Shown piece by piece: positions 36,462 through 38,473 of a stretch of DNA of 64,000 bases. The notes below the pieces were generated by a model. The model had not been told where the DNA came from. It saw nothing but the letters and a program-made list of their open reading frames with translations, and did no database searches. Within the stretch, counting starts at the first letter, position 1. Every line of letters begins with the position of its first letter. This DNA comes from a virus (Duplodnaviria > Heunggongvirae > Uroviricota > Caudoviricetes): the IMG/VR virus record IMGVR_UViG_2721755662_000004; one strand, 5' to 3'. Made by a program: the position numbers and the translations under genes.

Positions 36462-38473
36462 GTGTTGTTGTTTCGGGGACGCTGAAATCTCCTGATGGTG
36501 AGGCGATATCAGGAGCAAATATTACCCTGACGGCGCTGACAGTTTCACCGGATGCGCTCAGCGGCACCAGTGCGTCGGCAGTGACCCGTGAAGGTGGATA
36601 TTACGGAATGACGATGGATCCGGGGGAGTATGCGGTTTCGGTGACGGTGAAAGGGAAGACTGCTGTCTACGGACGTGTGCGTATTGAGGGGACCGAAAGT
36701 ACGGTGACGCTCAATATGCTGTTACGCCGCAGTCTTGTTGAGGTGAGCATACCCGGAGAACTGCTGACAGATTTCCGGCAGATACAGAATAATGTGGCTG
36801 ATGACCTTGCCACTATTCGTCGCCTGAATGAAGACACGGCGACAAAAAACACTCAGGCCACACAGTCAAAAGACAGTGCAGCAGCCAGTGCGAAGAGTGC
36901 ATCTGACAGTGCAAAGACGGCAACCAGCAGGGCGGCTGAAGCCGGACAAAAAGCCAGTGAAGCTGCAGAAGCGGCGACCCGGGCATGCGAGTCTGAAAAG
37001 GCCGCGGCAGCAGACGCGAATGATGCCAGACAACATGCTGAAACCGCCAGAGTGGCTCATGAGGCCGCCGGAGACGTTCTTAAACGTGCTGAGGCTGCTA
37101 CGGTTAGTGCTGAAGAGGCCAGGCGTATGGCAGAGAATGCCAGAGGCCCTAAAGGTGATACCGGACCGAAAGGTGATGCAGGCCCTCGTGGAGAAACAGG
37201 TCCACAAGGCGCACAAGGACCACGCGGTGAAACAGGACCGGTGGGGCCGCAAGGAGAGCGGGGGATTCAGGGGCCTGCTGGTCCACGAGGTGAAACCGGG
37301 GCCAGAGGTGAAAAAGGAGCCCCCGGAGACCCGGGGGGACCACCCGGGCCGAAAGGTGATGCAGGACCTAAAGGTGACACCGGACCAGCCGGTCCCGCAG
37401 GTGAAAAAGGTGAGCCGGGAGAACGAGGGCCTCAGGGAGAGCAGGGGCTACGCGGACCTGCAGGAGAGAGAGGCCCGGCGGGGCCGCAGGGACCGAAAGG
37501 AGATGCCGGTGCGACAGGTCCGGCAGGTCCGAAAGGTGAACGAGGCGAAGCTGGGCCGCAGGGCCCCCGCGGGGAGCCTGGTCCGGCGGGCAGCGCAGCA
37601 AATGTGGTGGACGCGACGACGGCACAGAAGGGAATTGTGCAGCTAAGTAGTGATACTGCCAGTAATGACGAAACAAAGGCTGCCACGTCGAAGGCTGTGA
37701 AGGCGGCAATGGATGAGGCCAAGGCGGCGAGACAGAAGGCAGAAGAGGTTGCTGCAGGTGGTGGCGTTCCCGGCCCGAAGGGAGACAAGGGCGATACGGG
37801 TCCGGCAGGCCCACAGGGACCGAAAGGGGATACGGGAGCCGCAGGCCCGGCAGGCGCACAGGGGCCAAAAGGTGACAAAGGCGATCCGGGGGTGGCTGGA
37901 CCAGCAGGTCCGGCGGGGCCACAGGGACCGAAAGGGGATACGGGAGCCGCAGGCCCGGCAGGCGCACAGGGGCCAAAAGGTGACAAAGGCGATCCGGGGG
38001 TGGCTGGACCAGCAGGTCCGGCGGGGCCACAGGGACCGAAGGGAGACACAGGAGCCCCCGGGCAAGGAACAGAACTGCTTACTACTGCCAATACATGGAC
38101 TCAGGCACAAACTTTTAATGGTGGTATTAATGGCAATTTGACGGTGACCGGAAACGGCTCATTTAACGATGTTCAGATCCGTTCGGATAAACGCAACAAG
38201 CGAAATGCAATACGAATAGATAATTGTCTGGAGAAGCTTGACTTGCTAACGGGTTATTTGTATGAAATACAGAATGCTGATGGCAGTTGGCAACAATCTG
38301 TGGGATTATTTGCACAGGATGCGTTAAAGGCTCAACCAGAGTTAGTTACATCTGATACAGATATCATATCTGGTGAAGAGAGATTTCGATTAAATTATAA
38401 TGGTGTTATTGCACTGTTAGTTGAAGGAATAAAAAATCTGCGTAAAGAGATTAGCGACCTTAAAGAGAAATAA
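36458..38473 (+). CDS. Tail fibre / tail spike with collagen-like Gly-X-Y repeats and a C-terminal intramolecular-chaperone (S74-like) domain
   Basis: 671 aa; long GPKGDTGP... arrays; a perfect 108-bp tandem duplication at 37811-38026. Confidence 0.75.

Follow-up and report, generated by a model that had tools for sequence, protein, structure and literature searches.

A perfect, in-frame 108-bp tandem duplication in the collagen-like tail-fibre gene of an stx-less 933W/phi24B-type prophage

The tail-fibre gene and its tandem duplication

The 64,000-nt stretch of DNA analysed here (IMG/VR record IMGVR_UViG_2721755662_000004, Caudoviricetes; hereafter the window) carries a prophage of about 62 kb, inserted between intD and ynfF. 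It is an stx-less element of the 933W/phi24B type, i.e. related to Shiga toxin (Stx) phages, and over its first 62,096 positions the window equals the chromosome of Escherichia coli FORC_069 base for base. The late operon is of the type found in 933W, Sp5 and phi24B, with a capsid protein of the N4-gp56 family and an 8,355-bp gene for a giant LPD38-domain protein. The gene of interest encodes the lateral tail fibre (Table 1). A sequence-only reading of the window had described its product as collagen-like, and this identity is well supported by the domain content (Pfam matches to Collagen, 5.8e-38; Phage_fiber_2, 1.3e-14; CarboxypepD_reg, 2.4e-8; and Peptidase_S74, 3.6e-8), by a match of the 671-aa product to the tail fibre family phrog_366 (1.4e-158, PHROGs), and by the position of the gene right after the tail adaptor in a 933W-like late operon. 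The gene is annotated as “tail fiber protein” in FORC_069.

The second, distal collagen-like segment of the fibre contains a 108-bp unit twice in tandem. The unit begins in frame 0 of the open reading frame (ORF) at 36458-38473 on the plus strand and encodes 36 residues, or 12 Gly-X-Y triplets; between the two copies (37811-37918 and 37919-38026), 0 of 108 positions are mismatched. Thus, the perfect duplication that had been noted at 37811-38026 is confirmed, albeit the repeat extends slightly beyond this range. Exact identity at an offset of 108 spans 122 positions (37811-37932 against 37919-38040), which defines a perfect tract of 230 bp and 2.13 copies at 37811-38040. Tandem Repeats Finder places a repeat with a period of 108, 2.4 copies and 96% matches at 37799-38056. 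On the protein level, the 36-residue peptide AGPQ...PAGP is found in tandem at residues 450 and 486, as previously proposed; the nucleotide range given with it translates as PQGP...GPAG, a shift of two codons that is trivial in a tandem repeat. A weaker 54-bp sub-period with 69% matches was detected inside the unit by the same program, the two halves of the unit agreeing at 35 of 54 positions. This sub-period is older than the 108-bp duplication.

Chance similarity within repeat-rich collagen-coding DNA was considered as a source of the repeat and is ruled out, as the exact run of 122 nt compares with a next-best exact self-match of 17 nt in the collagen-coding DNA (37145-38068). In the same DNA, background identity at in-frame offsets amounts to 0.43-0.59, and no other tandem-like exact run longer than 41 nt was found across the 64-kb window at offsets of up to 500. 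Several ORFs of 140-220 codons, located on the minus strand or in other reading frames, overlap the collagen DNA between 37368 and 38141. They are unlikely to represent hidden genes, stop-free frames being usual for GGN/CCN-rich collagen-coding DNA.

Table 1. Features of the tail-fibre locus (positions in the window)
Feature	Position	Strand	Remarks
Tail adaptor gene	35811..36461	+	PF24175 SU10_adaptor, 5.5e-32; overlaps fibre start by 4 nt
Tail-fibre gene	36458..38473	+	2016 bp, 671 aa, RefSeq WP_000117972.1; lateral fibre of 933W/phi24B-type prophage
N-terminal fibre domain, aa 1-130	36458..36847	+	PF13620 at aa 5-86; PF08400 sub-threshold
First collagen-like segment, aa 230-380	37145..37597	+	Gly-X-Y runs of 22 + 29 triplets with a GG register shift between them
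Phage_fiber_2 repeat, aa 387-428	37616..37741	+	PF03406, E 1.3e-14; between the two collagen segments
Second (distal) collagen-like segment, aa 436-537	37763..38068	+	34 Gly-X-Y triplets; length-variable segment
108-bp unit, copy 1	37811..37918	+	36 codons; identical to copy 2
108-bp unit, copy 2	37919..38026	+	Identical to copy 1; missing in 17 genomes with a 1908-bp gene
14-nt direct repeat, third copy	38027..38040	+	Further copies at 37811 and 37919; site of the crossover
Peptidase_S74 intramolecular-chaperone domain, aa 576-631	38183..38350	+	PF13884; starts at Ser576 (SDKRNK)
gp38-like tail-fibre adhesin gene	38556..39101	+	Directly 3' of fibre gene; PF21721 Gp38_N 1.1e-19; phrog_1121 tail fiber adhesin 5.7e-66
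cor superinfection-exclusion lipoprotein gene	39114-39341		Right after adhesin gene; side observation

Junction anatomy and proposed mechanism

Each copy of the unit starts with the 14-nt sequence CCACAGGGACCGAA, which recurs once more behind the second copy. The flanks of this 14-mer reveal the position of the crossover. Upstream of it, the left flank reads GGTCCGGCAGGC, and the junction shares GGTCCGGCGGGG with the right flank; downstream of it, left flank and junction share AGGGGATAC, and the right flank reads GGGAGACAC. The junction thus combines right-type sequence before the 14-mer with left-type sequence behind it, so that the crossover is located within the 14-mer itself. In the one-copy allele described below (L002), the unit is flanked by the 14-nt direct repeat, and the junction of the two-copy form falls within that repeat.

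Based on these data, the feature very probably arose in situ, as a 108-bp block of the distal collagen-like rod was duplicated in tandem and in frame via misalignment at the 14-nt repeat. According to the proposed mechanism, the two copies of CCACAGGGACCGAA that bracket the block at a distance of 108 bp in the one-copy allele would have misaligned, and replication slippage, template switching, or unequal sister-strand exchange would then have yielded the duplication. Misalignment in the reverse sense would delete the block and give rise to shorter alleles. The outcome is a series of 0, 1, and 2 units, corresponding to 10, 22, and 34 Gly-X-Y triplets, in which Gly-X-Y register and reading frame are kept so that the trimeric collagen helix should still form. 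In E. coli, slippage or template switching is established as a RecA-independent cause of deletions between tandem repeats of 101 bp (PMC7145654), and the recombination genes of the prophage itself, i.e. exo, bet, gam, and a RecE-family nuclease, are in line with the proposed mechanism.

Distribution and allelic series

The identical 2016-bp gene is present in six of 5,426 complete E. coli genomes, namely FORC_029, FORC_043, FORC_069, NCCP15648, NCCP 13905, and NCCP 13983. Four of them, for which the records were consulted, were isolated from human stool in South Korea. The two-unit assemblies originate from Seoul, Gyeonggi-do, and Gangwon, in addition to NCCP15648, and range from 5.19 to 5.33 Mb in genome size. 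According to a published strain table (PMC9423916), NCCP15648 dates from 2001 and FORC_069 from 2016; the literature search on NCCP15648 returned this table only, and neither the prophage nor its fibre gene is described there. The Korean isolates are listed with O104:H4 in a published study. A gene of 1908 bp, exactly one unit shorter, is present in 17 complete genomes including 2011C-3493, C227-11, HUSEC2011, 2009EL-2050, and 2009EL-2071, most of the 17 being named O104:H4 and of the outbreak type. Alignment of the two forms shows one 108-bp unit as the sole length difference, with eight substitutions elsewhere (ca. 99.5% identity). Gene size (2016 versus 1908 bp) is a simple marker by which the six Korean genomes can be told apart from the other 17.

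A wider series emerges from a comparison of genes that match the window at 99.5-99.8% identity over their first 1,293 nt (Table 2). Alleles with 0, 1, or 2 units were found, as well as two other length variants, so that the comparison of repeat number across related prophages suggested in the sequence-only reading lends support to the fibre length variation considered there, on the level of the gene. The zero-unit (599-aa) and the 18-triplet (623-aa) alleles are located on contigs with the same neighbouring genes.

Table 2. Length variants of the second collagen-like segment
Length (bp)	Gly-X-Y triplets	108-bp units	Found in
90	10	0	Short-read/metagenome assemblies, 599 aa
162	18	other arrangement	Short-read assembly, 623 aa
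198	22	1	17 genomes with 1908-bp gene
306	34	2	Window and six Korean genomes
324	36	different arrangement of diverged copies	NMBU-W12E19

The complete assemblies also bear on a technical explanation, in which assembly would have expanded the repeat of the Korean genomes or collapsed that of the others. Copy-number errors classically arise where perfect tandem repeats exceed the length of short reads or k-mers, and short-read assemblies are prone to collapsing an exact repeat of 230 bp. Still, the same 2016-bp gene occurs in six separately deposited complete assemblies from different provinces and with different genome sizes, the gene measures 1908 bp in all 17 complete assemblies of the other set, and the window agrees with FORC_069 up to a single homopolymer difference. 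An assembly error, named in the sequence-only reading as the finding that would speak against the duplication, is extremely improbable given this agreement within both sets.

The junction itself was traced with sequence probes. An exact junction 71-mer was found in the six Korean genomes only among the 5,426 complete genomes, and an exact junction 44-mer was absent from the IMG/VR viral contigs and JGI metagenome contigs searched. With less stringency, the junction probe matches other E. coli fibre genes at 87-95% identity. As related motifs recur in several collagen-like fibre genes of E. coli genomes, and as the fibre family is mosaic with C-terminus and adhesin swapped between alleles, the extra unit might stem from a paralogous fibre gene in another prophage and have entered by recombination or gene conversion. 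However, the second copy is 100% identical and exactly adjacent to the first, and the unit junction occurs at at least 99% identity at no other locus of the 5,426 genomes. Import is scarcely credible on these grounds and was rejected. An exact look-up of the 671-aa protein in a collection of 15 billion proteins gave no match, possibly because the query began with Val for the GTG start codon.

Copy number is constant within both sets, with two units in 6/6 Korean genomes and one unit in 17/17 others, and the two-unit repeat is stable across the Korean isolates. This constancy is relevant to the notion of a fast-switching contingency locus, where fibre length would be altered at high frequency in the population and adsorption or host range would vary as a result. 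Perfect 108-bp tandem repeats are intrinsically unstable, recombination genes are encoded by the prophage, and a quantum of 36 residues is found duplicated in many homologues. The uniform copy number, upheld across isolation years from 2001 (NCCP15648) to 2016 (FORC_069), argues against high-frequency switching, and an in-frame change provides no on/off switch. Furthermore, a variable-number tandem repeat would be recognised by copy numbers that differ among close isolates of one lineage, whereas the variation observed here is found only between more distant relatives. A contingency locus is accordingly a very unlikely explanation.

Direction and age of the event

The sequence-only reading had referred to a recent expansion. 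The identity of the copies and the confinement of the junction to one small set of genomes agree with this wording, whereas the distinction between gain and loss is inferred and not proven. Gain of a unit in the Korean set is favoured because the junction is restricted to the six Korean genomes, the 44-mer is absent from the contigs searched, and the copies are identical.

Conversely, the two-unit state may be ancestral, with the 1908-bp genomes having lost a unit by reverse misalignment. Deletions do occur in the array, as zero-unit and 18-triplet alleles exist; the prophage lineages are 1.2% diverged with neither being the direct ancestor of the other; and for tandem repeats in E. coli, deletion is the direction that has been measured well. 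Loss is nevertheless considered unlikely in view of two copies that are identical at all 108 positions and a junction limited to 6 of 5,426 genomes. Moreover, the nearest other long-array allele (NMBU-W12E19, 36 triplets) comprises diverged copies in another arrangement and lacks this junction.

Several points weigh against a duplication in the Korean lineage. Its polarity is not proven, and the Korean and outbreak-type prophages are relatives, neither being the parent of the other. At a divergence of ca. 1.2%, only about one difference is expected between two old 108-bp copies, which makes their identity weak evidence of recency. In addition, an exact copy of the zero-unit junction was not found in the complete E. 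coli genomes, and this allele is known only from short-read, JGI, and ENA assemblies; with the k-mer sizes common in assembly, the shared repeat of 14 nt is probably too short to have produced a collapse.

The prophages of the Korean and outbreak-type genomes share their attachment site. Their late genes are 1.2% divergent over 18 kb, and their immunity regions are different. For 2011C-3493, early and late genes are 97-99% identical to those of the Korean prophages, while the repressor/immunity regions are unrelated (window ~7500-9900 against ~7700-11650 of the 2011C-3493 record, L009). This represents a mosaic exchange of the immunity module.

Domain structure of the fibre and neighbouring genes

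The N-terminal fibre domain presumably mediates tail attachment, by analogy to related fibres. PF13620 scores 34.7 bits on residues 5-86, with a cut-off of 32.3, and PF08400 (phage_tail_N) reaches 18.6 bits on residues 1-130, under its cut-off of 26.6; precomputed PF08400 matches are recorded for many homologues of the fibre. Residues ~130-229 are rich in Ala, Glu, and Ser and of low complexity. At the other end of the protein, PF13884 matches residues 576-631 with 34 bits (cut-off 22), including the conserved S-D-x-R-x-K start. Residues 558-671 (positions 21-134 of the C-terminal query) align to gp37 of phage S16 (PDB 6F45, E 1.4e-11), with Ser576 of SDKRNK placed on SSDRRIKK of the latter. 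The C-terminal 96 residues are presumably cleaved off at Ser576, as judged from this motif. If cleavage precedes Ser576, the mature fibre would retain only 38 residues behind the collagen rod, and receptor binding would probably fall to the gp38-like protein, by analogy to the S16 system.

The gene directly downstream of the adhesin is cor. Cor proteins block FhuA, and the proximity of cor to the adhesin gene hints at the receptor of fibre and adhesin. In NMBU-W12E19, a DUF4376 fragment is found where cor is located in the window. The alleles that share the fibre shaft (NMBU-W12E19 as well as the 599-aa and 623-aa forms) part from the window about 40 nt past the Ser576 codon (window 38183-39341; L003 4767-5632), and the first 44 residues of their gp38-like adhesin are 68% identical, with an unrelated remainder. 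The cleaved chaperone domain and the adhesin appear to be swapped together as one host-range module that leaves the mature fibre unchanged.

Prophage context

Beyond the fibre locus, the window displays further features of the prophage. At position 62097, a run of nine G in the window is opposed to eight G in FORC_069; this is the sole difference before 62,097, and the position-by-position comparison is out of register thereafter. Either the homopolymer is truly polymorphic, or one of the assemblies contains a sequencing error. In Stx phages, stx and tRNA genes lie between the Q antiterminator and the SASA-family esterase; in the window, this gap spans only 765 bp (21103-21867) and is devoid of an annotated stx gene. 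A match to the small RNA (sRNA) STnc100 lies within this gap (21441-21646, 165 bits), and no tRNA genes were found anywhere in the 64-kb window.

In the early region (1729-5559), lambda-type exo, bet, and gam are adjacent to a gene for a 690-aa RecE-family exonuclease, so that two nuclease systems for recombination are direct neighbours. Immediately upstream of the replication genes, a small ORF includes a 41-nt exact direct repeat with 90-bp spacing (10320-10450) and a 16-bp unit in 2.1 copies (10384-10416), which could be origin- or iteron-like. A cassette of isrK, C4 antisense RNA, and c4-a1b1 target is present in two copies. The first (16516-16714) is located upstream of an ORF6N-domain gene (16768-17433), the second (18101-18299) just upstream of the gene for antirepressor Ant (18352-19035). 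This arrangement resembles the antisense control of the antirepressor in P1/P7-type phages, doubled in one prophage. Near the right end of the prophage, Rfam sRNA-Xcc1 matches are found on the minus strand at 60670-60759 and 61553-61638 (68 and 73 bits).

Expected consequences for the fibre

Rod lengths were calculated at ~0.29 nm per residue, a value that has been applied to the collagen domain of EPclA (PMC3368898). On this basis, the 36 extra residues (12 triplets) are expected to add ~10.4 nm to the distal collagen rod, which would measure ~9, 19, and 30 nm with 0, 1, and 2 units, respectively.

Among 124 retrieved homologues, the segment before the GTELLT motif varies from 10 to 43 triplets, and 35 of the 124 contain perfect tandem duplications on the amino-acid level, the unit comprising 36 residues in 15 and 72 residues in 11 cases. 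These 36- and 72-residue duplications are mostly found in a different fibre lineage of 661-717 aa (homologues P0082-P0120) with another unit sequence, which indicates that the 12-triplet step recurs across the family. One might speculate that a block of 36 residues (~10 nm) is a selectable quantum of fibre length, and that the lateral fibres of Stx-type and lambdoid prophages gain and lose such blocks by slippage, matching the depth of the O-antigen or capsule of the host. We regard this as quite improbable. If true, the series of 0, 1, and 2 units in this O104:H4-associated prophage would represent an adaptation of reach rather than neutral drift. The recurrent perfect duplications in a separate lineage are compatible with such a quantum and are equally explained by inherited motifs that favour misalignment at this spacing.

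In summary, the duplication is real but ordinary, as length changes of collagen domains are common and have already been described in this fibre family. It has little importance outside the family and represents neither a new mechanism nor a new kind of element. Its value lies in a clean and datable example of how the length of a collagen-like phage fibre changes, one misalignment at a 14-nt repeat corresponding to a gain of 36 residues, and in naturally matched alleles with 0, 1, and 2 units that are available for asking whether fibre reach affects adsorption.

Comparison with known systems

The mechanism can be compared to the tetA repeat assays of the Lovett type in E. coli, which likewise involve direct repeats ~100 bp apart, a crossover inside the repeat, and a change by precisely one unit, gained or lost. 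The readout of these assays is deletion on plasmids, whereas the founding event in the fibre gene used a perfect homology of only 14 nt. A parallel for the proposed consequence is BclA of Bacillus anthracis, where the strain-specific number of Gly-X-Y triplets sets filament length (Sylvestre et al. 2003, cited in PMC10470788). As expected of the fibre, BclA is a trimeric collagen-like filament protein with a variable number of triplets. However, BclA is a spore surface glycoprotein of a Gram-positive organism with other repeat units, and the effect on length that was measured for BclA is inferred here.

The C-terminal part of the fibre has its counterpart in the T2-type phage S16, where gp37 forms the tip of the long tail fibre and gp38 is the adhesin. 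The C-terminal 114 residues align including the SD-R-K start of the chaperone, and the next gene encodes a Gp38_N domain. S16 is a T4-like myovirus with a β-structured shaft, whereas in the window the tip module is mounted on the collagen-like shaft of a short-tailed temperate phage.

As for the shaft, the closest similarity is to EPclB-type fibres of enterohaemorrhagic E. coli, e.g. Z1483 of EDL933. In Ghosh et al. 2012 (PMC3368898), these fibres are described with an N-terminal fibre domain, a low-complexity Ala/Glu-rich region, and Col, Pf2, and Col domains in this order, as in the window, and with lambdoid or Stx-type prophages as their carriers, again as in the window; among relatives, the length of the Col domains varies by multiples of three residues. 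The N-terminal phage fibre domain (PfN, PF08400 or carboxypeptidase-regulatory-like fold) is represented here through PF13620, and two Gly-X-Y domains at aa 230-380 and 436-537 are split by Pf2 (PF03406). The C-terminal PfC domain (PF06820) that ends EPclA and EPclB gave no match in the fibre, which terminates with Peptidase_S74 (PF13884) instead. The protein is thus an EPclB-like shaft with a different C-terminal module, an S74 chaperone like that of S16 gp37. The orf21 product of Stx2-converting phage 86, listed in PMC3368898, matches the fibre gene at 82% over 59% of its length. The 108-bp duplication and its series of 0, 1, and 2 units are not described in the passages of that paper that were consulted.

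With respect to position and overall build, the fibre corresponds to gp61 of phi24B and ORF67 of Sp5. In phi24B, the N-terminal domains of gp61 bind the tail, which carries six trimeric fibres (bioRxiv 10.64898/2026.04.10.717836). ORF67 (ECs1228) is needed for infectious particles of Sp5, a phage that also encodes a tail protein of 2,793 aa (PMC5155283). All three genes directly follow that of the tail adaptor; in the window, this arrangement is part of a late operon of the 933W type, which also encodes an N4-gp56-type capsid protein and a giant tail protein of ~2,800 aa. The prophage of the window differs from phi24B and Sp5 in that no stx is annotated, in the C-terminus of the fibre, and in the downstream adhesin. 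Still, the fibres share the same build, i.e. an N-terminal tail-binding domain, a coiled coil that is putative in the window, a long collagen-like shaft that is interrupted midway, and a small C-terminal domain.

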